47,221 bases of DNA from an uncultured Verrucomicrobiota bacterium (lineage in GTDB: Bacteria; Verrucomicrobiota; Kiritimatiellia; CAIVKH01): the NCBI GenBank assembly GCA_937894535.1, contig CALBHI010000156.1, positions 1 to 47,221 on the forward strand, in the 5' to 3' direction. The position numbers and the translations under genes are program-made. The notes beneath the pieces are model-generated. The model was given only the letters and a program-made list of their open reading frames with translations. It did not search any database and was not told where the DNA came from. Shown one piece after another: positions 23,993-46,500 of this stretch; the stretch's first letter is position 1, and the number at the start of each line of letters is the position of its first letter.

Positions 23993-24062
23993 TGAAAACG
24001 GGGAGCACATTTTTTGGAGTGCGGAGCCTCGGCACCGCTTCCGACTCGCCGGAGGTCGCGGC

Positions 24063-30000: not shown

Positions 30001-32930
30001 GTTCGGGAACGGTGCTGCTGCGCCAGAGCGGACAGATGATCGGCGACCTGATTCTTGACGCCACCACCACAAATGCCACCGCGCAGCTCTGGAGCCCGTT
30101 GACCCCGATCGGTCTTGGCCGGAGCGTTTCGCTCACCGCGGACACCTTGACCCTCGACGGCGCGGTGACGGTTCTGCCCGGTGGTCTGGTCGGCCTGACC
30201 CTGCGACCGAATGTAAATGCCTCCGTCGGCTTCATCATCACCGACAACACGGCTTCGACGATCACCGTCGCCGTGAACGGTCCGACCAACCTGCTGGCCG
30301 TCGCGGTCCCCGGTGATGAATACGCGGCGGAGTACCGGTTCGACAACGTGATTCTGCGACGCGGCGCATGGGTCGTGACCAGCGACCGGTTGATCGTGAA
30401 CCAGGCCATGCAGGTCACCGAGAACAGCGTGGTCACGCATTACACGTCGAAGACCAATTACTTGCCCGGGCTGGATATCGTCGCCGGTCAGGTCTTCGTG
30501 GCCAGCAACAGCGCCCTGAATGCAGATGGGCGTGGCTACCTAGGTGGGCAACAGCCGGGCAATCCTTTCAACGAGGCCCGGACTCTGGACAATGCGTTGG
30601 GCTCCACGCAGCGGGCCGGTGGAAGTCATGGCGGTATCGGAGGACAGTTAAGCGATACGGCGGCTGGATCGATCTATGGCAGTATCACCACGCCCGATGA
30701 CCTTGGCGCGGGTGGGGGAAGCCGGGGTGATCAGTTTGTGGCCGGTGGCAACGGCGGCGGACGGATTCGATTGGTCGCGGAGACCGTGACGGTTCACGGG
30801 GCCATTTCCGCTGGCGGTGCCAACGGCCTGGGCTGGAATTCCGGAAGCGGCGCCGGCGGTTCGATCCTGATTTCCGCGTCGGCGGTGGAAGGCGACGGCA
30901 TCCTTCGCGCCAATGGCGGGGTCGGCGAAGTCGCGGGCGCCGGTGGCCGTGTCGCGTTGTACTACACGGCCTTGGGCATGGCTTCATCGAATATCCAGGC
31001 GCGCGGCGGGGATGGAACCTCCACCGATAGCGGCCACGGCACGGTCTTCCTGAAGACGCCGGCCCAGGCGCTGGGCACGCTGGTCATCGATGGCGCCAAT
31101 ATCACCTCGCCGGAAGACTCCACGCCGCTGCCGCCGGGGTACGTCTTCGACCAGATCGTCTTCCGCAACCGCGCCCGTGTGCTCGCCGATGTGCCGGTCG
31201 TGGCGACCGATACGATCAGCCTGCTCGCCAGCAGCCGGGTGAGCCATACGCGCGGTTTCCTGCCGGGACTCGTGGTCACGTCGGCGAATGTCATCGTCGA
31301 TTCCACGTCGGCCTTCGACGCAAGCGCGAAGGGTTATCGCGGCGGCCAGCGCGCCGGGTTCACCAACAATGCGGGTGAAACCGTCGGTTCGACAACCGGC
31401 TCCACGGTCTTTTCCGGCGGAAGTTATGGCGGGCTGGGCGCCTCGTATCTGGGCGGTTTTGCCGGGCCGACGTATGGCGTGCCCGTCGAACCGGTGTGGT
31501 TCGGGTCCGGCGGATCAAGCCGGGGTGATGTGTTTGTGCCAGGAGGTAATGGTGGTGGACGGGTCACCTTGATGGTGAGCGGCACGCTGACGATTGACGG
31601 CTTGGTGCTGGCGAATGGGCAAGCCGGTTTGGGGTGGAACTCCGGAGGCGGCTCGGGCGGATCGATCCTGGTGCACGCGGGCACGCTGGCGGGCAGCGGG
31701 GGCGTTCTCGCCAACGGCGGCGGGAACGAGGTCGGCGGTGGCGGGGGCCGTATCGCGATCTTCCACACGAACCTCGTCATGGCGGTTACCAACATAGCGG
31801 CCATCGGCGGAGCCGGCTTCGGCGGATTCCGCGGCGGCAATGGCACGGTGCTCCTGATGTCGGGCACGCAGACCAACGGCGATCTGATCGTCGATGGCTA
31901 TGGATTCTCCACCCCGAGCGACTCGACCCCCATGCCGACGAATGTGGTCTTCGACAACGTCATCTTCCGCAACGGGGCGCGTATTCAATTGGTTGAACCG
32001 TTGGTCGTCGCGGGTTCCGTGCAGGTGACCAGCAACTCCGTCCTCACCCATGCGCGCGGCAACGAAGCAGGACTGCGAATTGAGGCGCAGTTGCTGTTCA
32101 TCGGCACCAACAGTTCCATCGATGTGTCCGGGCGCGGCTACCGCGGCGGCCAGCGCGACGGAAACACGGCGAATACCGGCGAAACCACGAACAACACGCC
32201 CGGCTCGACTGTGTTCGCCGGCGGCAGCCATGGCGGCCTCGGTGGGCAGTGGAGCGGGGGTGTGGCGAACCCGACCTACGGGTCCGTGACGAATCCAGTC
32301 CTTCTCGGTTCCGGCGGTTCAAGCCGCGGCGATGCCGCGATTCCGGGCGGCAACGGCGGCGGACGCATCGCGCTGGCGATAACCGGCGGCATCACCAACG
32401 ATGGGCGGATCGTTGCCGACGGTCAGGCGGGTTCCGGCTTTAACTCGGGCGGTGGCTCGGGCGGCTCCATCAAGATTTCGGCGGACTCCCTTTCGGGCGG
32501 GGGAACGATCGAGGCGGATGGCGGCGGTAACGAGGTTGGCGGCGGTGGTGGCCGCATCGCCATTTACGTGAACAGCCTGGCTGTCGCCACCAACCGGATC
32601 ACGGCGGCGGGCGGTATCGGTTTTGGCGGCGGTGGAGCAGGCAGCGCCGGTACGGTATATCTCGGGATTCCGCCCGGCCCGTTAAGCCTACCGAGCTTGA
32701 ACCCGGTACTTGTTCCGGTTCCCGCCGCACGGGCCGCGTGGTCGGCCGGGTCGGAGTTCGTGGTGGTGTGGGATGTCGCGACCGGCGTCACCTACGCCGT
32801 GCAGTACAGCCCGCACCTGATACCGGCTTCGTGGACGACCATTCAGTACCTGGTGCATCCGGTCTGGACCGGTGTGTGGCCCAGCGGAGACGGACAGGGG
32901 TTCCTCCGAATCCAAGGCAATCCCGACTGA
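24063..32930 (+). CDS. Giant secreted protein (2955 aa): Ig-like/CARDB/Big_2/SbsA-type domains followed by five glycine-rich beta-helix-like modules
   Basis: - ATG at 24063 with GGAGG 7 nt upstream. Signal peptide MKRWLSILAGIAMSSIAAAA. The track ORF start at 23751 overlaps the previous gene and is not credible.
- The N-terminal two-thirds is a chain of Ig-like domains, including Big_2-like ASVNQAGRMVAQNNGIATLTATF.
- The C-terminal third is the modular repeat listed separately. Confidence 0.8.
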   Translation: MKRWLSILAGIAMSSIAAAAIQVQVTGPGGSATRTLPDGGGNFDVDLPLVANSVNQITISATDASTNRVEKNINITQLSLDQIVVSQVTTERLPPERVVELVNQGVINVADPENFNVSTFNIVLTIGGQRVPISTPIVMPIQEMMGFETIRPQSDPGSGGGGTPNIQDTEIVVFELSPPSPPGIPAPRIYGVIVMEGRIKSLKEFYSVRLLLMNTSGIFTLKDVMAQLTFPDGGLSHTLPSDGFISFGDILPGDGGKPGQKEREFIIRGDELGVRRVKIDFGGTVAGPGLPEENPIAFNGTAESSVEVKGPPSFLVTVIHPPQVFTNEPYNLVVEIQNTGELPALYASFELEVGADAQIENCIVNTNTLEVECSFGAGPVIRTFGHILPGEKVRETYRLNPLKSGPITSCLGISGQNIQLQVAVGNIGCLVGQYPPTLGVPEGLPVVNVAPMPNQLGVSPTAPVSAFFSELMNEATLTTGEGGTFNVLDPSGAIVNGGIRFVTIGGRTVAIWQRDAGFNILDDNTRYEVVITSGARDLDGNALFNPWRSWFRTTSLLDDQDPPELTMTILPPVDPNLVLPGQLLVVNAYASDQGTGIRRVELRIKSLTDTNSLYALIDQKTVFDPLVTLEPSIFTIDTASLTPGDTYQLLGTAFDVAGNARDSTLAFVLAPDANPPVITLPPDPTNFILRGVSVPLTPSSVTGAVRNVQYFLNDATNPVATVFLAPWQTFVRTLDLAIGVYTVKAVAVDALLQTGEDTFVFELVENLNEPQVGFGAAVNGGSFVTGSVVSVLGYAEDPVGIRSVGFYLNSVASPLLATNLAPFTFSTAGLATGTYRIILLASNNLGIANNVFDPQSYLEFNVVESPPGPPPPAPVVNNLTDPDTGTTAVTGTSIPGATVTIVNTNQGFVQAVIVATNGVFTGNISANGGDGLRLTVFHAPTSPSNSAPTLVTVPVPPVVTNLLVTPGSRTFTAAGQFQDFVVTAQLVGGGSSNVTARSTFSSSSAAIASVNQAGRMVAQNNGIATLTATFKTNTAQAAITVNIVVLTNFTAHSSKPVLVFPGDTAQITVTGQYSNGTSAPLFAGVSYGAQHPAVATINGSGLITAQAEGSANFSVGVGGLPPKTVSVGVTFGLNPPPTVSFVSPAPGTLVERGQTFPVNVQAVDPTGGVTRVILTSTGELVSSNEQVFTVTPNTTRSFSRTVPVDATLGGTITFRAWAVDVGGLVSTTQSLSVTVADLTAPAVSILAPTNGQSFNAGSTVTVVVASSDAVGVGEVRYTADGALSAGGAVTNAFTPAATNSFSFIVPPGASIPDVYLSALARDAAGNERTSTPVQIVLTGADITPPATIITAASAPGSSVSNILSYTVTDGFADLAYVQVYFRRNGIGTFNLYTETSGTNILGRFFPQSGTNGTVVFDSTRMGGDGFYEFYSVAVDQAGNREAAPVSADQTATFNVGTVWVEITASTNLSATDFSLDNVNLRISNAVVTIEGAHTFRNVELLGTSRITHAEATVSNEPSFNLTLWSLSMTSNASINVTGRGYLGGQQPGNPFNEGRTTNQAFGSSLRAGGSHGGIGGIFSGSIPGPLYGNLQQPTELGSGGGSRGDSIVAGGDGGGRIRITAINIAADGAIRADGNTGNGWQSGGGSGGSIFLVTRTLSGLGLVTANGGGNEVGGGGGRVSVQHTDISTKDTSLIRAIGFDGTQADGGNGTVFLKGPEDNNGTLMIDGLGVVGPFNGLPIPVGVTFDHIILRNNARVVVDDPIVVRDSLEIQTGAVLTHSTAQTNGLHITANRVVIDATSAIDVTGRGYRGGYRDGNNQNPGETLGGQTGAENRVGGSHGGLGGDFSGLGNNLVYGSPYDPVHLGAGGGSRGDQFVTGGNGGGRITIVASNGVTVHGAIRADGQPGNGWQSGGGAGGSIKIEAPLFFGTGSVTANGGGNEVGGGGGRILIDYDLLGLGSNNFGQTRNITASGFKGSVRHGSSGTVLLRQSGQMIGDLILDATTTNATAQLWSPLTPIGLGRSVSLTADTLTLDGAVTVLPGGLVGLTLRPNVNASVGFIITDNTASTITVAVNGPTNLLAVAVPGDEYAAEYRFDNVILRRGAWVVTSDRLIVNQAMQVTENSVVTHYTSKTNYLPGLDIVAGQVFVASNSALNADGRGYLGGQQPGNPFNEARTLDNALGSTQRAGGSHGGIGGQLSDTAAGSIYGSITTPDDLGAGGGSRGDQFVAGGNGGGRIRLVAETVTVHGAISAGGANGLGWNSGSGAGGSILISASAVEGDGILRANGGVGEVAGAGGRVALYYTALGMASSNIQARGGDGTSTDSGHGTVFLKTPAQALGTLVIDGANITSPEDSTPLPPGYVFDQIVFRNRARVLADVPVVATDTISLLASSRVSHTRGFLPGLVVTSANVIVDSTSAFDASAKGYRGGQRAGFTNNAGETVGSTTGSTVFSGGSYGGLGASYLGGFAGPTYGVPVEPVWFGSGGSSRGDVFVPGGNGGGRVTLMVSGTLTIDGLVLANGQAGLGWNSGGGSGGSILVHAGTLAGSGGVLANGGGNEVGGGGGRIAIFHTNLVMAVTNIAAIGGAGFGGFRGGNGTVLLMSGTQTNGDLIVDGYGFSTPSDSTPMPTNVVFDNVIFRNGARIQLVEPLVVAGSVQVTSNSVLTHARGNEAGLRIEAQLLFIGTNSSIDVSGRGYRGGQRDGNTANTGETTNNTPGSTVFAGGSHGGLGGQWSGGVANPTYGSVTNPVLLGSGGSSRGDAAIPGGNGGGRIALAITGGITNDGRIVADGQAGSGFNSGGGSGGSIKISADSLSGGGTIEADGGGNEVGGGGGRIAIYVNSLAVATNRITAAGGIGFGGGGAGSAGTVYLGIPPGPLSLPSLNPVLVPVPAARAAWSAGSEFVVVWDVATGVTYAVQYSPHLIPASWTTIQYLVHPVWTGVWPSGDGQGFLRIQGNPD
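28490..32665 (+). repeat. Five in-frame glycine-rich modules inside CDS 24063-32930
   Basis: - The G(R/K)GY anchor motif starts at 28674, 29475, 30528, 31329 and 32130.
- Spacings are 801, 1053, 801 and 801 nt, i.e. 267-aa modules with one 84-aa insertion.
- Each module carries GGSHGG(I/L)GG, G(G/S)SRGD, GGNGGGRI, GW(Q/N)SGGG(S/A)GGSI and ANGGGNEVGGGGGR. Confidence 0.9.
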
Positions 32931-34224: not shown

Positions 34225-34659
34225 CTACCGGGCGATGCCTTCAAACGCGTCGCGTCCGCGCTCCACCCAGTCGGTCTGGATCCCGCAGTCGAAACTCGCA
34301 AACATCCCGCCATGCCGAACGGCCAAGGCGAGCAGGTAGAGATCGGTCAGTTGCTTGGACGTCGCGTGTTTCAGGGTGATCCGCGGTGTTCCCTCGGCCA
34401 GGGAAAGATCATCGGGAAGAAACACGCTGTTCAGCCGCCGGCGGATGGCGGAAAGAGGTGCCATCGCCAACGCCGGCGAACCCGGACCGCCCGGATAATC
34501 CGGGTGACCGTAGATGCGGAGAAAACCATTCTCGGTGATGGGGCAGGTGGCCAGAGCAGGTTTATTGCGGTCGATGTACCACCTCCGGAATGCATCATGA
34601 AACTGGTGCGCCGGATCAGCCGAGGCAATCAACACGTTGATATCAAGAAGGTAAAACAA
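34225..34659 (-). CDS. vapC: Type II toxin, PIN-domain ribonuclease VapC family, 144 aa
   Basis: MFYLLDINVLIA (first acidic PIN residue), TCPITENGFLRI, and LTDLYLLALAVRHGGMFASFD (C-terminal acidic residues). Its start follows the stop of a small upstream antitoxin ORF with a 1-nt gap. Confidence 0.8.
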   Translation of the reverse strand: MFYLLDINVLIASADPAHQFHDAFRRWYIDRNKPALATCPITENGFLRIYGHPDYPGGPGSPALAMAPLSAIRRRLNSVFLPDDLSLAEGTPRITLKHATSKQLTDLYLLALAVRHGGMFASFDCGIQTDWVERGRDAFEGIAR

Positions 34660-34660
34660 C

Positions 34661-34936
34661 TCAGACCCCCTCCCGGTCGCGCAGCTGCTCGATCACCGCG
34701 TCCATGACCACCGGTGCATGTGCATCGCGTTTCAGCACCACAAAACCCAGGTCATCCGTGGTGTAGACGGCTCGTTCCTCCTTGGCCAGCATCGGTCCCG
34801 TTCCCGGGGAGTGTTCCTCCCCAAGTTCCCGGCGAAGGCCGCGGATCATCAACTCCCGCACGCTGGTTCCCCGTTCAATGGCCTTGATCTTTACGTGCCG
34901 GTACAGGGCGTCGGGGATGTCGATCGTGGTTTTCAT
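34661..34936 (-). CDS. vapB: Type II antitoxin (VapB-like, ribbon-helix-helix type), 91 aa
   Basis: The N-terminus MKTTIDIPDALYRHVKIKAIERGTSVRELMIRGL is typical of small DNA-binding antitoxins. It sits immediately upstream of vapC on the same strand. Confidence 0.7.
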   Translation of the reverse strand: MKTTIDIPDALYRHVKIKAIERGTSVRELMIRGLRRELGEEHSPGTGPMLAKEERAVYTTDDLGFVVLKRDAHAPVVMDAVIEQLRDREGV

Positions 34937-34970: not shown

Positions 34971-35163
34971 GGGGGGCCGCGGACGGGTTTTGATGGAGCC
35001 CTCCGGATCGCCCGCATGCACCTCCCGGCCGGGGACTTGCACCTTTCTGCGCTTGCCAACTACCGGGCTAAAGGTAGGATTTTCCCTTATGCGCGGGCGT
35101 TGTCCAAGGTATGGAAAACGGCCGCGCAGGGGTGTCCAACCGTTGGACAACAAGGAGGTCGGC

Positions 35164-35841
35164 ATGAGGATGACGCATCGTTGCGTGGTGGTGTGGGCGA
35201 TGGCAGCGGGTTGGCTGGGAATCTCCGACGGCTTCGCCCAGTTTACCAACCGGAGTTCGGTGTTGGACAGTTCGGGGACACGTAGCTCCGGCGGTTCCTT
35301 CACCAACCTCAGCGCGGCCGGGCAACCGGGCGGGATCGCGATCTCCAGCGGCGGCGGTTTCGTCAACCAGGCCGGTTTCCTCAACACCTTCATGCTGAAA
35401 CCCGGACTCGATACCGACGGCGACGGCTTGGCCGACGAACTCGATCAGGACAACGACGGCGACGGATTGGCGGATCTGGCCGAGATCGAAGGCTCCGGAT
35501 TCTCGCCGACCACCCCGACCCAGGTCAACGTGGCCGACTCCGATGGCGACGGCGTACCCGACGGCGCGGAAGCGGTGGCGGGCACCGATCCCTCCGACGC
35601 CAATGCCCTGCTCGAGGTCTTCCGGATCGCCCAGGCCGGCGGCCAGCAGGTCCAGTGGATTGCCCGCGGTGGCAAGACCTACCGCATACTTGCCCGCACC
35701 AACCTGCTCGCTGGGGGCTTTACCCCCATCGCCACCAACACCGCGGTGGGTGGTGCCGCCCCGTGGTTTGTGGTCACTAACACCGCGGTCGATGTCTCCA
35801 GCCTCGCCGCCGAATTTTATGCCATCGAAGTTCTGCCCTGA
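35164..35841 (+). CDS. Secreted protein with thrombospondin type-3-like calcium-binding repeats, 225 aa
   Basis: - ATG at 35164 is preceded by AAGGAGG (35152-35158).
- Signal peptide MRMTHRCVVVWAMAAGWLGISDGFAQ.
- Asp-rich repeats DTDGDGLADELDQDNDGDGLADLAEIEG and DSDGDGVPDGAEAVAGTDPSD.
- The track ORF start at 34990 is an extension. Confidence 0.7.
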   Translation: MRMTHRCVVVWAMAAGWLGISDGFAQFTNRSSVLDSSGTRSSGGSFTNLSAAGQPGGIAISSGGGFVNQAGFLNTFMLKPGLDTDGDGLADELDQDNDGDGLADLAEIEGSGFSPTTPTQVNVADSDGDGVPDGAEAVAGTDPSDANALLEVFRIAQAGGQQVQWIARGGKTYRILARTNLLAGGFTPIATNTAVGGAAPWFVVTNTAVDVSSLAAEFYAIEVLP

Positions 35842-35882
35842 TGCCACTACGTCACCCTGATGTTCGCTCCGGGAGAAACACC

Positions 35883-37859
35883 ATGGTTTCATCACGCCGC
35901 CTGAACGTGTTCGCTGCCTGCCTTTCCGTCTTGCTCCTTCATCCCACCTCCCTGCTTCTCGCCCAGCCTCCCTCGCTGATCAACTACCAGGGGCGGTTGC
36001 TCGACGGCACCAATCTGTATAACGGCCCGGCCCGGCTTTCGTTCTCCTTGTTTCCCGTCAGTTCCGGCGGTTCTGCCCTCCTGGTTAGCACGAGTCAGGC
36101 CGCCGTGGTGGACGGGTTCTATGCTACGGCGATCGGCCAGCATGTGGTGTTTGGCAACCTGAACGAGGCGTTGCAACTACCGGAAGTCTGGCTTCAGGTG
36201 ACGGTCAACGGCACGGTGCTGGCGCCGCGTGAACGCCTGTTGGCGGTGCCGTATGCCGGCATCACGTATGGATTAACGATGGGAACGAACCACAGCGTGG
36301 TGCTGAATCCTTCCGCCGGCACAAACAGCATTGGCGCTTACGGTAATTTTGCCGTAATCGGGGGCGGGCGAGAAAACCGCATGCTCGCCAATGCCGAATA
36401 CGCGGTGATCGACGGCGGCCGCGGCAACGTCAACTACTTCTCCAGTTACACCGCGATCGGCGGCGGACAGGGGCATGTGGTGACCGACAGTTATTATTCG
36501 GTGATCGGCGGCGGTATGTCCAATTACCTCGACGGTTTTTCCGACTACTCGGTGATCGCGGGCGGGCGGAACCATGTGATCAGTTCCAATACCTGGGGCG
36601 GGGTGATTGGCGGCGGAGAGTGGAACCGGCTTGGACTCGAATCGGATCATACCGTGCTCGCCGGCGGCATGTCCAATATCGTCGAACTGGCCCGCTACAG
36701 CGTGATCGGCGGCGGCTCGCGGAATACGATTCGATCGAACGTGAATAACGCCGTCATCGGCGGCGGCAGCCTAAACACCATTCAAGCCGCTGGATCACAC
36801 GGGGTCATCGGGGGGGGGCTCTGGAATACGATTCATGGCGCAATTAATTCCGTTGTCGGCGGGGGTGCAGAAAATGTCATCCAGACGAATGCGGAAAGCG
36901 CGGCGATTGGGGGCGGCGAGCGGAACCGGATCGAGGCGGCCGCAACCCACTCCGTCATCGGAGGCGGCGAGCATAACCGGATATGGACGTTCTCCCGGCA
37001 TGCCGTCATTGGGGGCGGATTAGGAAACACCGTCGATGTCAATGTGACGTCCGGCACGATCGGAGGCGGGCTGAATAACCGCATCAAAGGCGGCGCGAAT
37101 TACGCGGTGATCGCTGGTGGGCGGGAGCTGGTCATCGAGACGAACGCGAACCATTCCGTCATCAGCGGCGGTTCCCTCAACGTAATCCAGACCAATGCCG
37201 ACTATTCCGTTATCGCCGGCGGCAAGGACAACCTCATTCAGGGCAACGCGGGGGCCTCGTCGATCGGTGGCGGACGCTTCAATATCATCGGATCGGATAA
37301 CGCCTTCTCCACGATCGCCGGGGGTTACAGCAACCGCATCGGGAACAGCGCCTGGTACTCCTTTGCGGGGGGCTACATGGCGTGGGCGCTGCAAACAGGC
37401 ACCTTGGTTTGGGCGGACAGTTCCGGCGGAGTGACGTTCTCAACGAATGCCAATTCCGTGACCATGAAGGCCGCCGGCGGCTACCGATTTTTTTCCGATG
37501 CCGGAGGAACGCTGGGCGCGCGGCTCGCATCCGGCGCTACTTCCTGGTCGACGATCAGCGATCGTCGTGCCAAGGAAAACTTTGAACCGATCGATACCGC
37601 CGCGATTCTGGCGAAACTATCCGATCTGCCGATAACCGCCTGGACGTACAAGGCCGATCCGAACCACCGCCGTTACATCGGCCCGGTCGCGCAGGATTTC
37701 CATGCCGCCTTCGGGTTTGGCGACGACACGACGATCAACACCCTGGACACCGATGGCGTCGCCCTCGCGGCAATTCAGGCGCTGAGTGCAAAACTTGAAC
37801 GGGAGAACCAGGCGTTGCGCGCGGAGTTGGAGGCGATCAAACGCAAGCTGGGGATGTAG
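35883..37859 (+). CDS. Tail-fibre-domain protein, paralogue 1: signal peptide, INYQG N-module, about 19 GGG beta-helix repeats, C-terminal Peptidase_S74 chaperone domain, 658 aa
   Basis: - ATG at 35883. Signal LLLHPTSLLLAQPPSLINYQGRL.
- Periodic (V/I)IGGGxxNxI units, about 19-20 aa each.
- C-terminus TISDRRAKENFEPID...YIGPVAQDFHAAFG...DGVALAAIQAL...LRAELEAIKRKLGM matches the phage endosialidase/tail-fibre intramolecular chaperone domain. Confidence 0.8.
   Translation: MVSSRRLNVFAACLSVLLLHPTSLLLAQPPSLINYQGRLLDGTNLYNGPARLSFSLFPVSSGGSALLVSTSQAAVVDGFYATAIGQHVVFGNLNEALQLPEVWLQVTVNGTVLAPRERLLAVPYAGITYGLTMGTNHSVVLNPSAGTNSIGAYGNFAVIGGGRENRMLANAEYAVIDGGRGNVNYFSSYTAIGGGQGHVVTDSYYSVIGGGMSNYLDGFSDYSVIAGGRNHVISSNTWGGVIGGGEWNRLGLESDHTVLAGGMSNIVELARYSVIGGGSRNTIRSNVNNAVIGGGSLNTIQAAGSHGVIGGGLWNTIHGAINSVVGGGAENVIQTNAESAAIGGGERNRIEAAATHSVIGGGEHNRIWTFSRHAVIGGGLGNTVDVNVTSGTIGGGLNNRIKGGANYAVIAGGRELVIETNANHSVISGGSLNVIQTNADYSVIAGGKDNLIQGNAGASSIGGGRFNIIGSDNAFSTIAGGYSNRIGNSAWYSFAGGYMAWALQTGTLVWADSSGGVTFSTNANSVTMKAAGGYRFFSDAGGTLGARLASGATSWSTISDRRAKENFEPIDTAAILAKLSDLPITAWTYKADPNHRRYIGPVAQDFHAAFGFGDDTTINTLDTDGVALAAIQALSAKLERENQALRAELEAIKRKLGM
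37557..37859 (+). other. Peptidase_S74 intramolecular chaperone auto-processing domain (paralogue 1)
   Basis: The SDRRAK motif has Ser and Lys five residues apart, as in the Ser-Lys dyad of endosialidase C-terminal chaperone domains. It is followed by the conserved IGPxAQDF and DGVALAAIQAL blocks and a terminal coiled coil. Confidence 0.7.
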
Positions 37860-37866
37860 GCCTGTA

Positions 37867-37887
37867 GCCGCGCGCGGTGAGCGCGGC
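37867..37887 (+). terminator. Candidate hairpin after fibre paralogue 1
   Basis: gccgcgc-gcggtga-gcgcggc: a 7-bp GC stem with a 7-nt loop, 8 nt after the stop codon. No U-tract. Confidence 0.25.
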
Positions 37888-37944
37888 CGGGATGGCGGGG
37901 GATGGGGGATTACGATTAGGATTACGATTACGAGGGGAACGTTT

Positions 37945-39864
37945 ATGAACAACACACGCAAGCGGCTGGCCACGATCCTGTTTCTTTCATCCTTCATCCT
38001 TCATCCTTCATCCATTCCTCTTCTCGCCCAACCACCCGCGCTGCTCAACTACCAGGGCCGGCTGATCCAGGGCACCAACCTGGTCAACGGCACCGTCGCG
38101 TTGACCTTCCGCATCCACACCAACGCCACCGGCGGAAACTTCATCTACGAGGCGACCAACCTCGCCGCCGTGGTGGATGGCCTGTACGCGACGCAGTTCG
38201 GCGACAGCACCATCACCACGAACACCACGCTCAGCCTGAACCAGGCCCTGAACCGCGGCGGACTGAACCAGTCGTTGTGGCTTGAAGTCGCCGTCAACGG
38301 CACGAACTTGTCCCCCCGCGAGCGCCTGCTCTCCGTTCCTTATGCCCGGCAGACCTATGGCGTGTACGCCGATTTCAACAACCTCGTTCTGGGCTCGGCC
38401 AACCGGGGCGATGCCATACCCGACTTTTCCCAGCGCTCGGTCATCGGGGGCGGCGGGGACAACCGCATGTTCGGGATCTCGGCGGACAACGCGGTCATCG
38501 CGGGTGGCTGGCAGAACGTGATCGACACGGGCTTCGGTGGCCAGGATGTCACCATTTCCGGCGGACGCGGCAATGCGGTGATCGAATCGGACCGCGCGAC
38601 GATCGGCGGCGGCGTCACCAACCGCATCGTAACGTCCGAAGGCGCACGGATCGGCGGCGGTTTCAATAACGTGATTCAGCAGAACGCAACCTATGCGACC
38701 ATCGGCGGCGGACAAAACAACCAGCTGGTGGGCCCGGGGTCTGGGTCATCCGTGATCGGCGGCGGCAGCTTTAACGTTATCACCTCCTCCTCCCCGTACG
38801 GAGTCATCGGGGGCGGGGCGGGCAACAAGCTCGGACCGTTTGGCTTCGCTTCGACCATCGGGGGCGGGTGGCTCAACATCATCGGCTCGAACGCGCAATA
38901 CACCGTCATCGCGGGTGGCGAAATCAATGTGATCAGCAATGGAGCCTTCTACGCAGTGGTGGGCGGCGGCTACGACAACCGTATCGGGCAAGGTGCGGCG
39001 CGTGCGACCATCGGGGGCGGGTCCGGCCACCGCATCGATAATCTTTCCGCCCATGCGGTGATCGGCGGCGGTCAGAACAACAAGGTGCTCAACGATGCGC
39101 AGTACACGGTGATCGGGGGCGGACGCGGCAACGAGATCGGCGTCGATGCCGAAGACGCGGCGATCCTCGGTGGTCAGAACAACCGGATCGGCGGCGAGGC
39201 CTTTGGCGCGGCGATCCTCGGCGGTCAGTGGAACGTCATCAGCAACCTGGCGTACCAAGGGGTGGTGGCCGGTGGATTCAGCAACATGGTCGGCGGCCAG
39301 AATGCCTTCGCCGCCGGCACCCGCGCCCGGGCCACCCATGCCGGATCCTTCGTCTGGGGCGATTACCAGGTTACCAACATCATTGCCTCCTCGGCGATCA
39401 ACCAGACCACGTTCCGTTCCTCCGGCGGGTTCCGCATTTTCACGTCCGGCGTGTTGACCTCGGGGGTGCAGGTCGCGGCGAATAGCGGCGCCTGGACCCA
39501 GATCAGCGATGTCAACGCGAAGGAGGCCTTTGCCCCCGTGGACACCCGCGCCGTGCTCGACAGGGTCGCTGCCATGCCGATCACCACCTGGCGCTACAAG
39601 GGACAGGATGAGGCGATTCGCCACATCGGTCCGACCGCCCAGGACTTCCACGCCGCCTTCGGCGTCGGTGATGCTCCCGGTTACGGTATCACCACCGTCG
39701 ACGCCGACGGCGTCGCCCTCGCGGCGATCCAGGCGCTGGCGAAGGAGAACGGGACGTTGAAGGAGCAGGTTTCAGGTTTCAGTGTTCAGATGTCGGAGTT
39801 GGAAGAAGAAAACAGGGTCTTGCGCGAGGAGTTGGACGCGATCAAGCGCAAGTTGGGTATGTGA
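37945..39864 (+). CDS. Tail-fibre-domain protein, paralogue 2 (same architecture, S74 C-terminus), 639 aa
   Basis: - ATG at 37945. Signal FILHPSSIPLLAQPPALLNYQGRL.
- GGG-repeat body.
- C-terminus QISDVNAKEAFAPVD...HIGPTAQDFHAAFG...DGVALAAIQALAKEN...LREELDAIKRKLGM.
- The track ORF start at 37786 overlaps paralogue 1. Confidence 0.8.
   Translation: MNNTRKRLATILFLSSFILHPSSIPLLAQPPALLNYQGRLIQGTNLVNGTVALTFRIHTNATGGNFIYEATNLAAVVDGLYATQFGDSTITTNTTLSLNQALNRGGLNQSLWLEVAVNGTNLSPRERLLSVPYARQTYGVYADFNNLVLGSANRGDAIPDFSQRSVIGGGGDNRMFGISADNAVIAGGWQNVIDTGFGGQDVTISGGRGNAVIESDRATIGGGVTNRIVTSEGARIGGGFNNVIQQNATYATIGGGQNNQLVGPGSGSSVIGGGSFNVITSSSPYGVIGGGAGNKLGPFGFASTIGGGWLNIIGSNAQYTVIAGGEINVISNGAFYAVVGGGYDNRIGQGAARATIGGGSGHRIDNLSAHAVIGGGQNNKVLNDAQYTVIGGGRGNEIGVDAEDAAILGGQNNRIGGEAFGAAILGGQWNVISNLAYQGVVAGGFSNMVGGQNAFAAGTRARATHAGSFVWGDYQVTNIIASSAINQTTFRSSGGFRIFTSGVLTSGVQVAANSGAWTQISDVNAKEAFAPVDTRAVLDRVAAMPITTWRYKGQDEAIRHIGPTAQDFHAAFGVGDAPGYGITTVDADGVALAAIQALAKENGTLKEQVSGFSVQMSELEEENRVLREELDAIKRKLGM
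39505..39864 (+). other. Peptidase_S74 intramolecular chaperone domain (paralogue 2)
   Basis: SDVNAK Ser-x4-Lys motif plus the conserved downstream blocks. Confidence 0.7.
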
Positions 39865-39914
39865 AGGGACGCGGCGGGCCTTCGCCGGGGTCATGGGATG
39901 AAAAAGGATATAGA

Positions 39915-41696
39915 ATGAAAACGAACTACGCACAAATGAAATGGCTGGCGGTATGTTCCGCCGTCCTCCTGCACCCCTCCTCCCTCGTCTTCGCCCAACC
40001 GCCCTCGCTGATCCACTACCAGGGACGGTTGCTCAGCGGCACGAACCTGGTGAACGGGAACGTCGGGTTGTCGTTGCGCTTGTTCAATGCGGCTTCGGGT
40101 GGGACGATACTTTACGAGGATTCCAACACCGTCACCGTCGCGGACGGCTTGTATGCGACCTTTATCGGCGACCATCCGACGAACAACGCCTTTCTGAACG
40201 CGTTGACCAATCCGGCGGTGTGGGTCGAGGCGGCGGTGAACGGTACGACCCTCTCCCCGCGCGAGCGGTTGGCCTCGGTTGGCTATTCCCTCTCCACCCG
40301 CGGTGTGTTGGTCATGACCAATGGGAGCATCGTGGTCAACCCCGAGGGGAACAGCATCGCCAACAACAGTCTGAATGCCGCCATTTCCGGCGGCCTGCTC
40401 CATCAGATCGGCAGCAATGCCCAGGACGCGGTCATCGGGGGCGGGTCCAACAACGTGATTGATACCCGCAGCTCCGGGGCGCTGATCGCCGGCGGGGCGC
40501 GGCATGTCATCGGAACCAATTCCCGCTATTCCGTCGTGGTCGGCGGGTTGTCGAATGACATCTGGCCGAACAGCCCTTTTTCCTTCATCGGCGGGGGCGT
40601 GGGCAACCAGATCGAGACGGGCAGCCAGTATGCCGTTATTGGCGGGGGGGCGTTCAATGCGATCAGCAACAACGGTTCGTTCGCCACCATTGCGGGCGGT
40701 AGCTCGAATGACATCGAATTCGACGCGGAATATTCGACCATTGGCGGTGGTTCCAACAACCGGGTGGCGAGCAATAGTCTGTATGCAGCGGTGGCCGGCG
40801 GCCGCCAGAATGCGATCGGTGCCAATACCGACTACGCGCTGGTCGGCGGTGGATTCAGCAACGCCGTGGCCGCGGGTGCTGATTACAGCGCCATCGTGGG
40901 AGGGCTTGAAAACAGCATCGCACCGGGCTCCAGTTATGCCGCCATCGGCGGGGGCGGCCGGAACCGGATCACCGACCAGAGTGCGTATGCCGTCATCGGG
41001 GGCGGATCGGGTAATCACATCGGGACGAACGCCTCGTACGCGGTGATCGGTGGAGGATTTAACAACAGTGTAACCACCAACGCGAGCTTCACCACCATCG
41101 GCGGAGGAGGGGGGAACATCATCCGTACGCGAGCCGCCTATGCGACGATCAGCGGGGGCGGATCCCACGAAGTGGGCAGCAACAGCCTGTACTCCACCAT
41201 TGCGGGTGGGTTGGACAATTCCATCGGTCCGAATGCCACCAATGCGTTCGCCGCCGGCCGCCAGGCGAAGGCCAATCACCGGGGTGCCTTTGTCTGGGGC
41301 GATGATACCGGTGCCGATGTCGCATCCACCGCCAACAATCAGGTGACCTTCCGGGCCGGTGGCGGATTCCGGGTGTTGAGCGGCGAGCTGCAGGCGCAGG
41401 CGGGATTGCGGGTGGGGACGAACGGCACGTCGTTCGACCGGTTCCAGGCCGGCACGGCGGTGCTCGGCACCGGTATCAACGTGGCCGTTTATTCCGTGGC
41501 CTTTCCCGGCGCCTTCAGCACCGCCCCCCGCGTCGTGGTCACCCCGCGCAACGATCCGTCGTTCAACGTGAACGACACCTTCGTCGCCACGGTGCGCTCG
41601 GTCACCACGACCAATTTCGTGGTGAATGTGGTGCGGGTGGATGCCAATGCCCCGTGGGCGCAACAACTCCGCGCCGACTGGTTCGCGTGGGAGTAG
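39915..41696 (+). CDS. Tail-fibre-like protein, paralogue 3: same N-module and GGG repeats but an H-type-lectin-like C-terminal domain instead of S74, 593 aa
   Basis: - ATG at 39915. Signal AVLLHPSSLVFAQPPSLIHYQGRL.
- GGG-repeat body.
- C-terminus YSVAFPGAFSTAPRVVVTPRNDPSFNVNDTFVATVRSVTTTNFVVNVVRVDANAPWAQQLRADWFAWE fits the H_lectin pattern (F..F...P.V, vt..gF, W.A).
- No S-x4-K chaperone motif. Confidence 0.75.
   Translation: MKTNYAQMKWLAVCSAVLLHPSSLVFAQPPSLIHYQGRLLSGTNLVNGNVGLSLRLFNAASGGTILYEDSNTVTVADGLYATFIGDHPTNNAFLNALTNPAVWVEAAVNGTTLSPRERLASVGYSLSTRGVLVMTNGSIVVNPEGNSIANNSLNAAISGGLLHQIGSNAQDAVIGGGSNNVIDTRSSGALIAGGARHVIGTNSRYSVVVGGLSNDIWPNSPFSFIGGGVGNQIETGSQYAVIGGGAFNAISNNGSFATIAGGSSNDIEFDAEYSTIGGGSNNRVASNSLYAAVAGGRQNAIGANTDYALVGGGFSNAVAAGADYSAIVGGLENSIAPGSSYAAIGGGGRNRITDQSAYAVIGGGSGNHIGTNASYAVIGGGFNNSVTTNASFTTIGGGGGNIIRTRAAYATISGGGSHEVGSNSLYSTIAGGLDNSIGPNATNAFAAGRQAKANHRGAFVWGDDTGADVASTANNQVTFRAGGGFRVLSGELQAQAGLRVGTNGTSFDRFQAGTAVLGTGINVAVYSVAFPGAFSTAPRVVVTPRNDPSFNVNDTFVATVRSVTTTNFVVNVVRVDANAPWAQQLRADWFAWE
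41365..41696 (+). other. H-type lectin-like domain (paralogue 3 C-terminus)
   Basis: See the motif alignment in the parent CDS. The boundaries are approximate. Confidence 0.5.
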
Positions 41697-41735
41697 GGGG
41701 GTAGACAGCACAATATCGTGGATTAGAATAGTGGC

Positions 41736-43268
41736 ATGAAAGAAACAACGACGACCTTGCGGCCGGCGCTCCGTTACCTGGTTGTTGCCGGGTTTTTATC
41801 ATCGCTTCTATCCCCTTTTTCACCCGTTCTGCGCGCCCAGCCTCCAGCCCTGGTCAACTACCAGGGGCGGTTGGTCGACGGCACCAACCTGCTGAACGGG
41901 TCCGTGGGCCTTTCGCTCCGGTTGTATGACGCCGCCTCGGGCGGTACCCTGTTGTACGAGGATTCCAACACCGTGTCGGTGGCGGACGGGCTCTACAACA
42001 CCTTTATCGGGGACAACGCCACCACCACCGGAACATTGGTGAACGCCCTTCTGCAAACCAATGTGCATCTCGAAGTGGCTGTGGATGGGATTGCGCTTTC
42101 ACCGCGGGAGCGGATGGCTGCTGTCCCGTATTCGCTGGCCACGCGGGACATCGTGCTGACCCCGCTCTGGAACATGCTGGTTTTCCCGGAGCGCAACACC
42201 CTGCAGAACGACGCCTTCGGGTTCTTCGGATCCACCGTCGCGGGTGGATCGGGAAACGTCCTGCTGCAGTCCGCCGACGCGGTCATTGCCGGCGGGCGCA
42301 ACAATGTCGTGAGCAACTTTGCCAATGTCGCGTTTATCGGGGGAGGCTTCCGAAACTTTATTGATCCGTTGGCCGCCAACGCGGTGATTGTAGGCGGGGA
42401 AAACAACCGCATGCGACAAGGTGCCGAATCCGGTGCCATCGGCGGGGGACGGGGCAATGTCATCGATCCGGGAGCCGTCTATTCCACAATCCCGGGCGGC
42501 ATCTTCAACCGCGTGGGCACAAACGCCTATGCTTCGATGGCCGCCGGGTACAATGCCGAGGCGTTGCACTCCGGATCGTTTGTGTGGTCGGATTTTGCCG
42601 GACCCGGCGTGATGCGCACCACCGCCGACCATCAATTCCTGATCCGGGCTGCCGGCGGCGTGGGGATCGGCATGGCCCCGTCGAATGCCCCGGGTGCGTC
42701 GCTTTCCATCCGTGGTCGCGGCGCGCAAAGTGAATGGATCGTCCTTGCCGGCACGAATGCCGTCAACCGCTGGCACATCAATGGCAAGTCCAACGGGGTC
42801 AACATCGCCGAAACAGGCGTGGCCGATGCCCGCATCTTCATCCGCCCCGGTGGCAACGTGGGCATCGGCACGGACAATCCGGCCGAGCGGTTGCAGGTGG
42901 TGGGCACCGTGCAGGCGAGCGGCTTCATCACGTCCAGCGACCGGGATCAGAAGGAGAACATCCGGCCGGTGGATGCCGCGACGATCCTCGACAAAGTAGC
43001 CGCGCTGCCGATCGCGACCTGGACCTTCAAGCAGGAGCCGAACGGCACGCACGTCGGCCCGATGGCGCAGGACTTCCACGCCGCCTTCGGTTTCGGCAAC
43101 ACCGACACCGGCATTATGACGGTGGACGCCGACGGCGTCGCCCTCGCCGCCATCCAGGCGCTCGCGAAGGAGAAGGAGTTGCTGGCGAAGCAGGTCATGG
43201 ACCTCGAGGAGGATAACAAGGCGTTGCGCGACGAGTTGGAGGCGATCAAGCGCAAGCTCGGTCTGTGA
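41736..43268 (+). CDS. Tail-fibre-domain protein, paralogue 4 (shorter repeat body, S74 C-terminus), 510 aa
   Basis: - Signal LLSPFSPVLRAQPPALVNYQGRL.
- Fewer GGG repeats than the other paralogues.
- C-terminus TSSDRDQKENIRPVD...HVGPMAQDFHAAFG...DGVALAAIQALAKEK...LRDELEAIKRKLGL. Confidence 0.8.
   Translation: MKETTTTLRPALRYLVVAGFLSSLLSPFSPVLRAQPPALVNYQGRLVDGTNLLNGSVGLSLRLYDAASGGTLLYEDSNTVSVADGLYNTFIGDNATTTGTLVNALLQTNVHLEVAVDGIALSPRERMAAVPYSLATRDIVLTPLWNMLVFPERNTLQNDAFGFFGSTVAGGSGNVLLQSADAVIAGGRNNVVSNFANVAFIGGGFRNFIDPLAANAVIVGGENNRMRQGAESGAIGGGRGNVIDPGAVYSTIPGGIFNRVGTNAYASMAAGYNAEALHSGSFVWSDFAGPGVMRTTADHQFLIRAAGGVGIGMAPSNAPGASLSIRGRGAQSEWIVLAGTNAVNRWHINGKSNGVNIAETGVADARIFIRPGGNVGIGTDNPAERLQVVGTVQASGFITSSDRDQKENIRPVDAATILDKVAALPIATWTFKQEPNGTHVGPMAQDFHAAFGFGNTDTGIMTVDADGVALAAIQALAKEKELLAKQVMDLEEDNKALRDELEAIKRKLGL
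42936..43268 (+). other. Peptidase_S74 intramolecular chaperone domain (paralogue 4)
   Basis: SDRDQK Ser-x4-Lys motif plus the conserved blocks. 23-nt stretches (caggacttccacgccgccttcgg, gacgccgacggcgtcgccctcgc) are identical to paralogue 2. Confidence 0.7.
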
Positions 43269-43595: not shown

Positions 43596-46500
43596 ATGAC
43601 AAATCGAGTGCTGTTGCGTTTGGTGCTGGCCACCTTGCCGGCGTGGTCCACCATGGCCGCCTCGGTCTTTGTCGAGGCCAACTGGCGACCGGCCAGTCAG
43701 GGCGGCGGACAGGCGGTCATTGGCAGCGGATACTATTTCGATTTGGGTTCGGTCGCCTTTGGCGTGATCAGCGTGAACAACCTCGACCTGGGTCGGGGTT
43801 ATGACATCGAATTCAACCCGAACCGCTTCACGGATTATATCAGCGCCCGGGTGGTCAGCACCTTTGGCTCGGGTTTCTGGCTGGCCTATACGCTGGAAAA
43901 AGTGGTGATCTCCAATACGCGCATCCTGATCATTCCCCGGCAAGTAGTGTTCCGGCCCGGCAGTGGGTACACGGATGACGCGGAAGTGGTGTTCGATCCG
44001 CCCCGCCGCAACGAGTTCCAGTTTGCGCTTGATAACACCAATGTGACCGAGATCGTGCTCGGCACCGGATTGTTCTACCAGAATGCCGTGATCACCCGCG
44101 ACATGACCATCCGCGGCGCCGGTATCGGGCGTACCCTCGTTTCCGGCGGGCGCGGGGGCTCGGTGTTCCGCGTCCTGCCCGGGGTGAAGGTGACGCTGGC
44201 CGACATGACCATCTTCGACGGCCTGGCCCAGAGCGGCGGCGGCATCTACAACGAGGGTGAGCTCGAGGTTGTGCGGTGCGAGATCCGCAACAACCGCGCC
44301 TACCATGCCCTGTTCGGCGAGGGCGGCGGCATCTTCAACCGGGGCAAGGCGAAGCTGTGGGTCTCGGACTCGATCATCCGCGACAACATCGCCTCGCGCA
44401 ACGGCGGCGGCATCAGCAGCAGCGGCATCAACTCCAGCACCATGCCGTCGCCCGGCGGTTCCGGCCTCGCCCGCGACGTGGTCTCCGGCTCGCTGACCAA
44501 CCTGGCCGGGCTTACCCCGCCCACCGATCCGACGAACACGAACCAACTCAACAACTTCGCCAACGACGCCGCCGGCCGCTCGGCCAACACCTTGTTGCAG
44601 CTCGGTTCGCCCAAGGATTTCTTCGAGGGCAACTTCAGCAATCCGCTGGAGGATGCCATCACCTGGTTCAACTACAATTCGCCCATCTGCGTGATCAGCA
44701 ACACGGTCATCGAAGGCAACCGGGTCGGCAAGGCCAATGCGAAAGCGGAGCTGCATTCCTCGGTCTTCGGGTTGCGCCTGCCCCGGCTCGTCTGCTTCGG
44801 CGGCGGCCTCTACAACGAGCTGGGCCTGATGACGGTGGAAAACTCGCGGATCGACCGCAACGAAGTGGAAAGCGATATCGTCAACTACGGCGGCGGGGTG
44901 GCCTCCCTGCTGGGCGGCCTGAGCATCCGCAACACCACCATCAACCACAACCGCGCGGCCTCTCTCACCGTGTTGGCCGCCGGCGGCGCCGCGTACAATT
45001 TCGCCTCCTACGCAAAAATCTCCGACGCGCAGATGATCAGCAACACGGTGGATGCGCTGTTCTTGTCGAGCGGCGGTGGTCTAAAAAACACCTCGGCCGG
45101 TTATGCCGAACTGGCGCGCGTGCGCATCGAGGACAATGAATCCGGCGGGGGCGGCGGCATCGCCAACGACTACAAGGCGAAGCTGCTGGTGGAGGACGGC
45201 ACCATCCTCCGCAATGTGATTTCCGGTGTCATTGCCGCCAACGGCGGCGGCCTGCGCAACGAGGACGGCGGCGAGGTGGATATCCACCGGACCACCATCA
45301 GCGGGAACATCGCCTCGGGCAAGGTGAAGGGCGGCGGTGTGTATAACCAATGCACCCAGAACCGGATCGGCGACGTCGTTCCGGTGATCAACGCCAGCCG
45401 CGTCTCGCTGTTCAACAGCACGATCAGCCACAATGTGCTGGATGGACGCGGTCCGGAAAACGTTCCGCTCGAGACGCGCGGCGCGGGCATCTACAACGGC
45501 AGTTTTGACGGCGGCGTCGCACAGCTTGTCGTGTACAGTTGCACGGTCTATTCGAACGCCGCGTCGCGCGGCCTCATCAACGACGGCGGCGGACTCCGGT
45601 CCACCGGGTTCAGCGAGATCAAGACCAGCATCGAAGACAACATTCCCGGAACGTCGCGGGTGTTCATCGCCAACAGCCTGTTCGCCCGGAATATCCCCTC
45701 CGACATCAACAACAGCTTCCCCAGCCTGTTGACATCCTACGGCTACAACATGGACAGCGACGGGTCGGGCGCGTCCGCAGCCTTTCTGAGCGAGCAGTCC
45801 TTGGCGGCGTCTGCGCGGTTCCGCACCGCCAATCCCCTGCTGGGACCGTTGCAGTACAACGGCGGGCCCTCGCCGACCCATGCCCTGTTCACGGGAAGCC
45901 CGGCGATCAATAGCGGTGCACCCACGGGAACCCTGGGCGTGGCGCTGAGCCCGCCGACCGACCAACGCGGCCTGGTGCGTGCCCTGGCCGGTCGCCGCGA
46001 CATCGGCGCCTACGAGGTCATCACGCCCACCGCGAACGGGGAAGGGTACGCCATGTTCGAGGACACCACGCTGGTCGTCGAGCCGGCCCAGGGTGTGATC
46101 CTCAATGACTTCGCCAACACGCCACAAGCCTTGCTGGTGACGTCCACGACCAATGGCAGCCTCACGTTGTTTCCGGATGGCGGTTTCATCCATACGCCGG
46201 TCACCAACTTCAACGGGACCAATGCCTTCACCTACCGGGTGTTTGATGCCGACGGGGTGACCGGAGCGGTGGCCACTGCGACCATCGTGGTCCGTCCGCG
46301 TCTCGACTGGCTGGCCATGACGCCGACGCCGGGCACCAACGCTTTCGCCGACCGCCACACGAACATCGTGCTGACCTTCGACGAAAACATCACCACCGGC
46401 GCCGTGCAGGCGCATGTCAGCCTGCGCGGGTCGCTGTCGGGTCCGCGCGCCTTCACCGCAATCGTGGTTGGCGCGACCGCCCGCCTCGTTCCCCACACGT

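Follow-up and report, generated by a model that had tools for sequence, protein, structure and literature searches.

A window of 47,221 nucleotides (positions 1 to 47,221 of contig CALBHI010000156.1, from an uncultured bacterium of the Kiritimatiellia, Verrucomicrobiota) contains a tandem array of four fibre genes, G1 to G4, preceded by a gene for a secreted calcium-binding protein, here called the partner. It is likely that this locus encodes the partner protein together with four paralogous fibres that belong to the superfamily of mosaic adhesive trimers (MATs), and that the fibres are made by the cell and not by a phage. The genes are filed under the MAT superfamily because their architecture is the same as that of the Bdellovibrio MATs, with homology of the N-terminal domain (N-domain) not formally proven. 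Each of the 21 Bdellovibrio proteins described in the MAT paper has a beta-rich N-domain of ~130 aa, which is conserved, along with a signal peptide and a trimeric fibre (PMC10769870); 13 of them end in a Peptidase_S74 (S74) domain with an SDxxxK motif and 8 in TNF-like, C-type-lectin or novel-sandwich tips (PMC10769870). That work (Caulton et al., 2024) provided crystal structures and demonstrated surface location and S74 self-cleavage (PMC10769870). A first-pass annotation of the window had regarded the family as functionally uncharacterised, a claim that no longer holds, as the same architecture defines the Bdellovibrio MAT fibres characterised in 2024 (PMC10769870). The earlier description is otherwise accurate, with two further corrections that concern a proposed QPP sorting signal and a phage-like fibre body. 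Considered as a whole, the four genes are ordinary-looking examples of a kind of secreted adhesin that is very large and was characterised recently.

All four open reading frames (ORFs) were found consecutively on the + strand at the starts proposed earlier, and a four-way alignment agrees with the proposal that they share one layout (Table 1). The gaps between G1, G2, G3 and G4 measure 39-85 bp and the partner gene ends 42 bp before the start of G1. Overall identity of G2-G4 to G1 is 40-45%, and the elements A-Q-P-P, Y-Q-G-R-L, G-T-N-L, D-G, P-R-E-R and V-x-Y are invariant within the first 125-135 residues of the alignment. Recent gene conversion or cassette shuffling among the paralogues was considered and rejected, since DNA identity is just 60-85% even in the modules that they have in common. 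The ~100-aa N-terminal module that had been described as common to the four genes is present in the alignment: it lies directly after the signal peptide and is strongly conserved both in G1-G4 and in their homologues, with an 8-residue insertion in G2 compared to G1 and G3. In an AlphaFold2 (AF2) monomer model of G3, this N-domain forms a beta-sandwich at a predicted local distance difference test (pLDDT) value of ~90.

The sole NCBIfam model matched by the N-domain was NF053851 (Bdello_MAT_N, mosaic adhesive trimer family chimeric fiber protein), with E 0.004 for G4 and matches in 15 of 40 diverse homologous N-domains (best E 5.8e-6), all of them under its cut-off of 60 bits, a value chosen for the Bdellovibrio subfamily. 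At E <= 1e-3, a profile of the N-domain recovered 78,562 representatives of clusters at 50% identity (46,954 at E <= 1e-10), and in nearly all of the best 150 matches the matching stretch starts ~20-60 residues into the protein. When one genome per species was scanned with an alignment of the close subgroup as query, the domain was found in Kiritimatiellae, other Verrucomicrobiota, Lentisphaerae, Ignavibacteria, Zixibacteria, Omnitrophota, Binatia, Planctomycetota and delta- and gamma-proteobacteria, among others, and the best matches came from metagenome-assembled genomes of Kiritimatiellae. In the homologous loci that were fetched, N-domain genes often stand in arrays of three to six and end in S74 or other domains. 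The N-domain family is very large, spans many diderm phyla and often occurs in tandem arrays. One locus that is syntenic with the window (L083) has five N-domain genes, and in the fifth member of its array (L083, 16647-18272) the N-domain is fused straight to a Kelch beta-propeller, with no repeat shaft; the N-domain therefore works as a general-purpose module.

Signal peptides were judged by a heuristic analysis of the n-, h- and c-regions of G1-G4 and 177 homologues. Each of the four proteins has two to three K/R residues, then a 10-residue window with a Kyte-Doolittle value of 2.2-2.8, and Ala at -1 before Q-P-P. Among the homologues, the YQG motif lies at a median of 31 residues from the Met, the hydrophobic window reaches a value of >=2.0 in 90% and the n-region carries a net positive charge in 92%. 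The Sec-type signal peptides previously assigned to all four proteins are thus borne out by these heuristics, with the same geometry in the 177 homologues. The suggestion that the invariant QPP at the mature N-terminus serves as a sorting signal fared less well. QPP is confined to close relatives, while the mature N-termini of other members read QGTAFTYQGRL, ADVPxLINYQGRL and so on, and the element conserved across the family is the ~100-aa [IF][NT]YQGRL domain as a whole. A separate observation is that the signal peptides of G1-G3 (35883-35963, 37945-38028 and 39915-39995) share an odd motif, (F/L)(I/L)LHP(S/T)S(F/L/I)..LAQPP, which recurs in many homologues of related genomes and may perhaps reflect mere recent common ancestry.

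The shaft consists of a 17-aa unit, (Y/F)(S/A)(V/T)IGGGxxNxIxxxAx, repeated ~20, 17, 17 and 6 times in G1, G2, G3 and G4, respectively; a variable number of IGGG rungs had been anticipated correctly, but with a period of ~19 aa instead of the 17 aa measured here. In a search of PDB with a profile built from 83 family members, the head of the Moraxella trimeric autotransporter UspA1 was matched with 11 repeats in register (3pr7, E 2.9e-22; 3ntn, E 2e-5), and the repeats of the G3 monomer model form a regular strand-turn stack with pLDDT values of up to 98. Pfam head-repeat models gave no match in G1-G4. Weak Foldseek matches of the G3 model include EibD, CbpF and viral YadA-like head proteins, and a Foldseek comparison with BFVD returned weak matches to giant-virus YadA-like head proteins only. 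On the strength of profile similarity, the shaft is kin to the head repeats of trimeric autotransporters and not to phage fibres.

Three of the four proteins were expected to end in Peptidase_S74 (PF13884), and this was confirmed for G1, G2 and G4, which score 48.7, 43.8 and 48.0 bits, respectively (E 1e-11 to 1e-13), compared to a gathering cut-off of 22. The SDxxxK motif, which supplies the catalytic Ser-Lys dyad of such domains, is in register in each, with SDRRAK (G1, 559), SDVNAK (G2, 521) and SDRDQK (G4, 401) all at position 1 of the Pfam match, and 100, 119 and 110 residues, respectively, extend from the S74 Ser to the end of the protein, terminal coiled coil included. In addition, the S74 part of the family profile reaches the chaperone domain of MyRF (7dc3) at E 0.008. 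No Peptidase_S74 match was found in G3 by Pfam. The H_lectin half of the same Pfam check stayed below the cut-off in this protein, both for the whole sequence (E 0.0044) and for the tip alone, which covers the whole H_lectin profile (PF09458) at E 5.6e-4 and 20.4 bits compared to a cut-off of 24 and also matches Gp53-like_C below cut-off (E 1.5e-3). A precomputed PF09458 match exists for two homologues, and the AF2 model of the tip is of low confidence (pLDDT 36-56). From these profile matches, an H-lectin reading of the G3 tip is plausible. Between the short shaft and the S74 domain of G4 lies a beta-rich stretch (aa ~270-400, window 42540-42940) that contains two VGIG(T/M)..P motifs and has no Pfam match.

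These features suggest how the fibres might be assembled. The precursors would be exported via Sec, and signal peptidase I would cut just before Q-P-P, as expected from the signal features observed. In G1, G2 and G4, the S74 domain would trimerise first and template the folding of three chains, after which it would cut itself off at the Ser of SDxxxK, so that 100-119 aa are freed and the distal tip is exposed. Motif and domain alike are observed here, and the chemistry would be that of phage endosialidase, T5 pb1 and Bdellovibrio Bd3182. G3 would instead carry a self-folding, lectin-like tip. The shaft would be built of stacked 17-residue rungs like those of the UspA1/YadA head. Each chain would fold into a left-handed beta-roll by itself, three of these would pack round an axis, and the number of rungs (~6 to 20) would set shaft length; a trimer would be expected from the S74 domain and from the observed homology to the trimeric UspA1 head, and the monomer model provides the fold of a single chain. 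The N-domain would be cell-proximal and would hold the fibre on the envelope, for which the partner, presumably co-transcribed, is a candidate adaptor. Together, the four fibres probably equip the cell with a set of different tips that adhere to glycans or to other cells.

Several observations weigh against this interpretation. Trimerisation, cleavage, export and surface location are all predicted, and the structural model is of a monomer only. Every NF053851 match is far under the 60-bit cut-off, and the N-domain was compared with Bdellovibrio through this profile alone. The score of the 3pr7 profile match is highly composition-biased (50.8 of 82 bits), single-sequence searches of PDB with G1, G3 and the G1 C-terminus gave no meaningful match, and a Foldseek search of PDB with the whole G3 model gave nothing at E <= 0.001, returning generic beta-sandwiches only. 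Clustering of the neighbours of fibre genes over ~80 loci revealed no conserved secretion or anchoring machinery beside them. Additionally, Kiritimatiellae are not known to be predators.

Table 1. Coordinates of the fibre array, the partner gene, the giant secreted proteins of the window and the small double-motif proteins of six other loci (for the last six rows, coordinates refer to the locus named; signal peptides are predicted)
Feature	Coordinates	Strand	Length	Parts and remarks
Partner gene	35164-35841	+	225 aa	Pfam TSP3_bac, E 1e-7; predicted to be secreted
Fibre gene G1	35883-37859	+	658 aa (ORF)	Signal peptide aa 1-27; N-domain aa 28-125 (nt 35964-36257); ~20 repeats of 17 aa, aa 158-493 (nt 36354-37361); S74 chaperone from Ser559 (nt 37557) to end, terminal coiled coil included
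Fibre gene G2	37945-39864	+	639 aa	Signal peptide aa 1-28; N-domain aa 29-134; ~17 repeats aa 166-456; S74 from Ser521 (nt 39505); identical to database gene call P0053
Fibre gene G3	39915-41696	+	593 aa	Signal peptide aa 1-27; N-domain aa 28-125; 17 repeats aa 156-444; C-terminal tip of 92 aa (nt 41418-41693), H-lectin / gp53-like, below cut-off, no S74; identical to database gene call P0460
Fibre gene G4	41736-43268	+	510 aa	Signal peptide aa 1-34; N-domain aa 35-133; ~6 repeats aa 167-267; S74 from Ser401 (nt 42936)
Giant secreted Ig-like/Calx-beta/cadherin-like protein	14902-21144		2,080 aa	
Giant secreted Ig-like/Calx-beta/cadherin-like protein	21935-23992		685 aa	
Giant secreted Ig-like/Calx-beta/cadherin-like protein	23751-32930		3,059 aa	
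Giant secreted Ig-like/Calx-beta/cadherin-like protein	43596-47221		>1,208 aa	Cadherin/Big_9 protein 3' of the array
Small double-motif protein, L051	10245-10589			
Small double-motif protein, L052	12979-13719			
Small double-motif protein, L055	2016-2567			
Small double-motif protein, L059	17870-18481			
Small double-motif protein, L060	2823-3461			
Small double-motif protein, L064	1752-2198			

The partner gene is the one element of the locus that could lead somewhere new. The first-pass annotation had described a Ca-binding-repeat protein before the array and a giant adhesin after it, and both are present (Table 1). The partner protein comprises a signal peptide, a ~55-aa N-terminal double motif, TSP3 Ca-binding repeats and a C-terminal beta-sandwich; by the same heuristics as used for the fibres, it has the parts of a Sec signal (basic residues, a hydrophobic stretch and Ala at -1). 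The double motif, SSVLDxSGTxSSGGSFTNxSAAGQPGGIA..GGxFVNQAGFLNTF, is highly conserved. In the AF2 model, residues 150-225 form the beta-sandwich (pLDDT 75-86) and residues 23-77 have pLDDT values of <50; Foldseek of this model against PDB gave nothing at E <= 0.001 and only generic beta-sandwiches. Matches of the partner to the Akkermansia 'Amuc_1099 pilus-like' family were set aside as little informative, nearly all of them falling on the TSP3 Ca-binding stretch alone. At least 283 homologues exist, and those listed are of near-constant length (~222 aa) and 53-83% identical; the partner is therefore more conserved than the fibres. In the neighbour clustering described above, the partner family was the sole widely conserved neighbour of fibre genes (22 loci, all from the Planctomycetota-Verrucomicrobiota-Chlamydiota (PVC) group), and it lies <=600 bp from an N-domain fibre gene on the same strand in 16 of the fibre-seeded loci. 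Where loci were seeded with the partner instead, an N-domain fibre gene stands directly downstream in three of seven and no such gene in another three, and the remaining locus has a different protein that ends in the same TSP3/sandwich module. The linkage between partner and fibres is strong but not obligate, and an obligate neighbourhood was rejected on account of the three partner-seeded loci in which the partner stands alone; this pattern would fit one adaptor serving fibres that are scattered over the genome.

For the Bdellovibrio MATs, the N-domain has no structural homologue in PDB and its binding partner on the cell is unknown according to the authors (PMC10769870). We regard it as possible, with the chances somewhat against it, that the partner described here is the missing envelope anchor or adaptor for the fibre N-domain, its double motif docking the trimer, possibly by beta-strand complementation as in pilins. 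The double motif in question reads S-x-x-[FY]-x-N/L-x(3-4)-GQ ... [FY]-x-N/L-x-x-G-F; under such a scheme, the TSP3 repeats and sandwich would hold the partner on the cell. If this were true, it would answer the question left by the MAT paper, namely what the N-domain binds, and would amount to a two-part fibre-plus-adaptor system across many phyla. The partner is thus a testable candidate for the means by which such fibres are held on the cell.

Beside the fibre genes of six non-PVC loci, small secreted proteins were observed with a double S-x-x-[YF]-x-L..GQ / ..G-[FY]-W motif (Table 1). They occur in Ignavibacteria, Zixibacteria, Omnitrophota and Anaerolineae, and three of the six have a dockerin domain. 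Their motif aligns with that of the PVC partner at an hhalign E-value of 0.0038, which is merely suggestive, and three of them match the N-terminus of PamT, the tip-pilin model of the candidate phyla radiation (CPR), at E 1e-6 to 9e-5, far below cut-off; the Pam preprint places a tail-fibre-like protein together with pam operons. The wider pattern of small proteins and PamT should be taken as a set of leads and not as findings.

There are several potential alternatives to cell-made MAT-type fibres. One is that a prophage or tailocin has decayed here and that G1-G4 are what is left of its tail-fibre genes. In keeping with this origin, the S74 domain and the PHROG tail-fibre and virion-protein matches cover the C-terminus, and nine of 2.9 million IMG/VR contigs (L089-L097) carry a divergent N-domain split by a ~160-aa insertion; in one of these (L096, 9944-11524), the variant stands between S49 protease and P22-coat-like genes and an integrase. 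The L096 variant could be prophage cargo or the result of a mis-set prophage boundary. Such an origin is contradicted by the context of the array: genes for capsid, terminase, portal, tube, sheath, baseplate, integrase or lysis were not identified anywhere in the 47 kb window, and neither Pfam nor PHROG families of phage type nor tRNAs were found in the 35 kb upstream or the 4 kb downstream of the array, so that its earlier placement outside any phage context is upheld over the whole window. A survey of homologous loci, as had been recommended, likewise found relatives among housekeeping genes (neighbours include purine, polyamine, nitrogen and lipid metabolism genes) and no phage structural genes. 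In addition, the Sec signal peptides of the four genes and 177 homologues, the age of the paralogues indicated by their DNA identity, and the flat GC content (0.61-0.64 across the region compared to 0.58-0.68 elsewhere) speak against a phage remnant. A tblastn search with the N-domain at E <= 1 found no match in 50,697 phage genomes, and G1 as a whole matched these genomes over residues 528-655 only; PHROG matches are mostly C-terminal, with the best stretch of the tail-fibre family phrog_1980 starting at residue 313. The proteins had been called phage-tail-fibre-like, and this description suits their C-terminal 100-120 aa and no other part. The prophage explanation is largely refuted and we consider it very improbable. 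The related proposal of cell-encoded fibres with diversified shafts and tips is retained, on the basis of a constant N-module, variable repeats and tips, and a position outside phages here and in related genomes.

A second origin in phage-like machinery would make the four proteins fibres of a contractile injection system, or of another phage-tail-like machine encoded elsewhere, with the N-domain as baseplate-attachment domain. Fibres of extracellular contractile injection systems (eCIS) do follow the same logic of an N-terminal attachment domain and variable tips that include Peptidase_S74 and H-lectin (PMC12923769), but eCIS particles assemble in the cytoplasm and the window proteins carry Sec signal peptides. 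Moreover, no sheath, tube or baseplate gene lies near the fibres in the annotated loci (the window, L001-L003 and L083-L088), and the neighbour clustering found no widely conserved family except the partner, leaving this explanation with a very slim chance. The relationship of the repeats to the UspA1 head, the name 'trimeric autotransporter adhesin' that the Joint Genome Institute (JGI) gives to several homologues, and the presence of EibD, CbpF and viral YadA-like heads among the weak Foldseek matches might alternatively point to classical trimeric autotransporter adhesins of type Vc secretion. The C-terminus is instead an S74 domain or a lectin-like tip, and the polarity is the reverse of that in autotransporters, the conserved module being at the N-terminus; this reading is refuted because the anchor domain is missing (no YadA-anchor beta-barrel in G1-G4 by Pfam at E <= 0.1), and it is hardly credible. 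More weight, while still unlikely, belongs to the possibility that the proteins are released as soluble trimeric lectins or as glycan-binding or glycan-degrading exoproteins for polysaccharide, with the N-domain acting only as a trimer cap. Kiritimatiellae are known as polysaccharide degraders, no membrane anchor, lipobox or sorting motif can be seen in the fibres, genes for anchoring machinery are not linked to them, and the partner is absent beside many fibre genes and stands alone in three of seven partner-seeded loci. Released lectins of this kind are disfavoured by the lack of a catalytic domain in G1-G4 (Pfam) and by the surface location of the MAT relatives, and the strict N-terminal position and conservation of the N-domain over 78,562 representatives suit attachment better than a cap. 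Cell-made fibres of the MAT superfamily therefore remain the preferred reading.

Other genes of the window code for TPR and spermine-synthase-like proteins, a ketoacyl synthase and a methyltransferase, for three giant Ig/Calx-beta proteins, and for a flavoprotein reductase and a VapBC pair. The stretch that holds the array is rich in very large secreted proteins and has the look of an island of surface proteins. The listed start of the 3,059-aa ORF overlaps the preceding gene by ~240 bp, and its true start is probably later. The VapBC pair, composed of VapC (PIN domain) and a putative VapB antitoxin, lies on the - strand at 34225-34936, between the flavoprotein reductase and partner genes; a VapB gene is also present near the related locus L001. 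Sigma-70-like promoter matches were seen directly 5' of G4 (41702-41729, 10/12 positions) and 5' of the partner gene (35053-35080, 9/12). Six such sites occur across the region compared to 1.9 expected from shuffles, all of them consensus matches only, and terminator-like sites show no excess over shuffled sequence (7 compared to 8.0).

The locus was compared with the closest known systems. The likeness to eCIS fibres lies in a constant N-terminal attachment module with interchangeable tips, including S74 and H-lectin, and is one of design principle only: the eCIS fibres have conserved N-terminal baseplate-attachment domains (eBAP1-5) and variable tips that include Peptidase_S74 and H-lectin (PMC12923769), but they are cytoplasmic and encoded inside eCIS operons, whereas the window proteins carry Sec signals. 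With the K1F endosialidase of phage, the L-shaped tail fibre pb1 of T5 and the eukaryotic MyRF chaperone, G1, G2 and G4 share PF13884, SDxxxK at the start of the domain and a helical coiled-coil tail; in contrast to phage S74 fibres, everything upstream of the chaperone is unrelated, and the proteins are predicted to be exported by Sec and to have no role in a virion. The shaft resembles the UspA1 head (3pr7, 3ntn; a YadA-like left-handed parallel beta-roll) in its (S/T)(V/I)IGGGxxNxA.. pattern over 11 repeats, followed by a FAAGxxAxA stretch, but differs in a repeat of 17 aa compared to 15, in the absence of a neck, stalk or anchor barrel, and in its reversed polarity.

The closest comparison is with the Bdellovibrio MATs, among them Bd3182 (S74 type) and Bd2133, Bd1334, Bd2439, Bd2734 and Bd2740 (non-S74 tips). 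Both begin with a signal peptide and a beta-rich N-domain, continue into a long repetitive shaft (trimeric in the MATs and putatively so here), and end in S74 with SDxxxK or in a swapped adhesive tip, which is lectin-like in both (putatively so in G3); both also occur as many paralogues per genome, some in tandem, and outside prophages. Several differences are evident. Similarity of the N-domain is sub-threshold (best E 5.8e-6), the window proteins are 510-658 aa in length compared to ~1,000 aa, and the shaft is a regular 17-aa UspA1-like beta-roll where intertwined beta-helices make up the solved MAT tips. The fibres here belong to a PVC bacterium without known predatory life, and their array is preceded by a conserved gene for a Ca-binding partner, a kind of protein for which no counterpart is described in Bdellovibrio. 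Searches of the literature on Kiritimatiellae tail fibres and on later MAT work found nothing relevant, and Supplementary Table S3 of the MAT paper lists PVC, Omnitrophica and Fibrobacterota-Chlorobiota-Bacteroidota (FCB) members (PMC10769870). MAT-type fibres would accordingly not be confined to bacterial predators and, with tens of thousands of cluster representatives, would be among the commonest secreted adhesin designs in diderms. Here they appear as a four-gene repertoire of tips in a PVC bacterium, assembled from parts with three separate sources: an N-domain of the MAT type, a shaft of the autotransporter type and a chaperone of the phage type.

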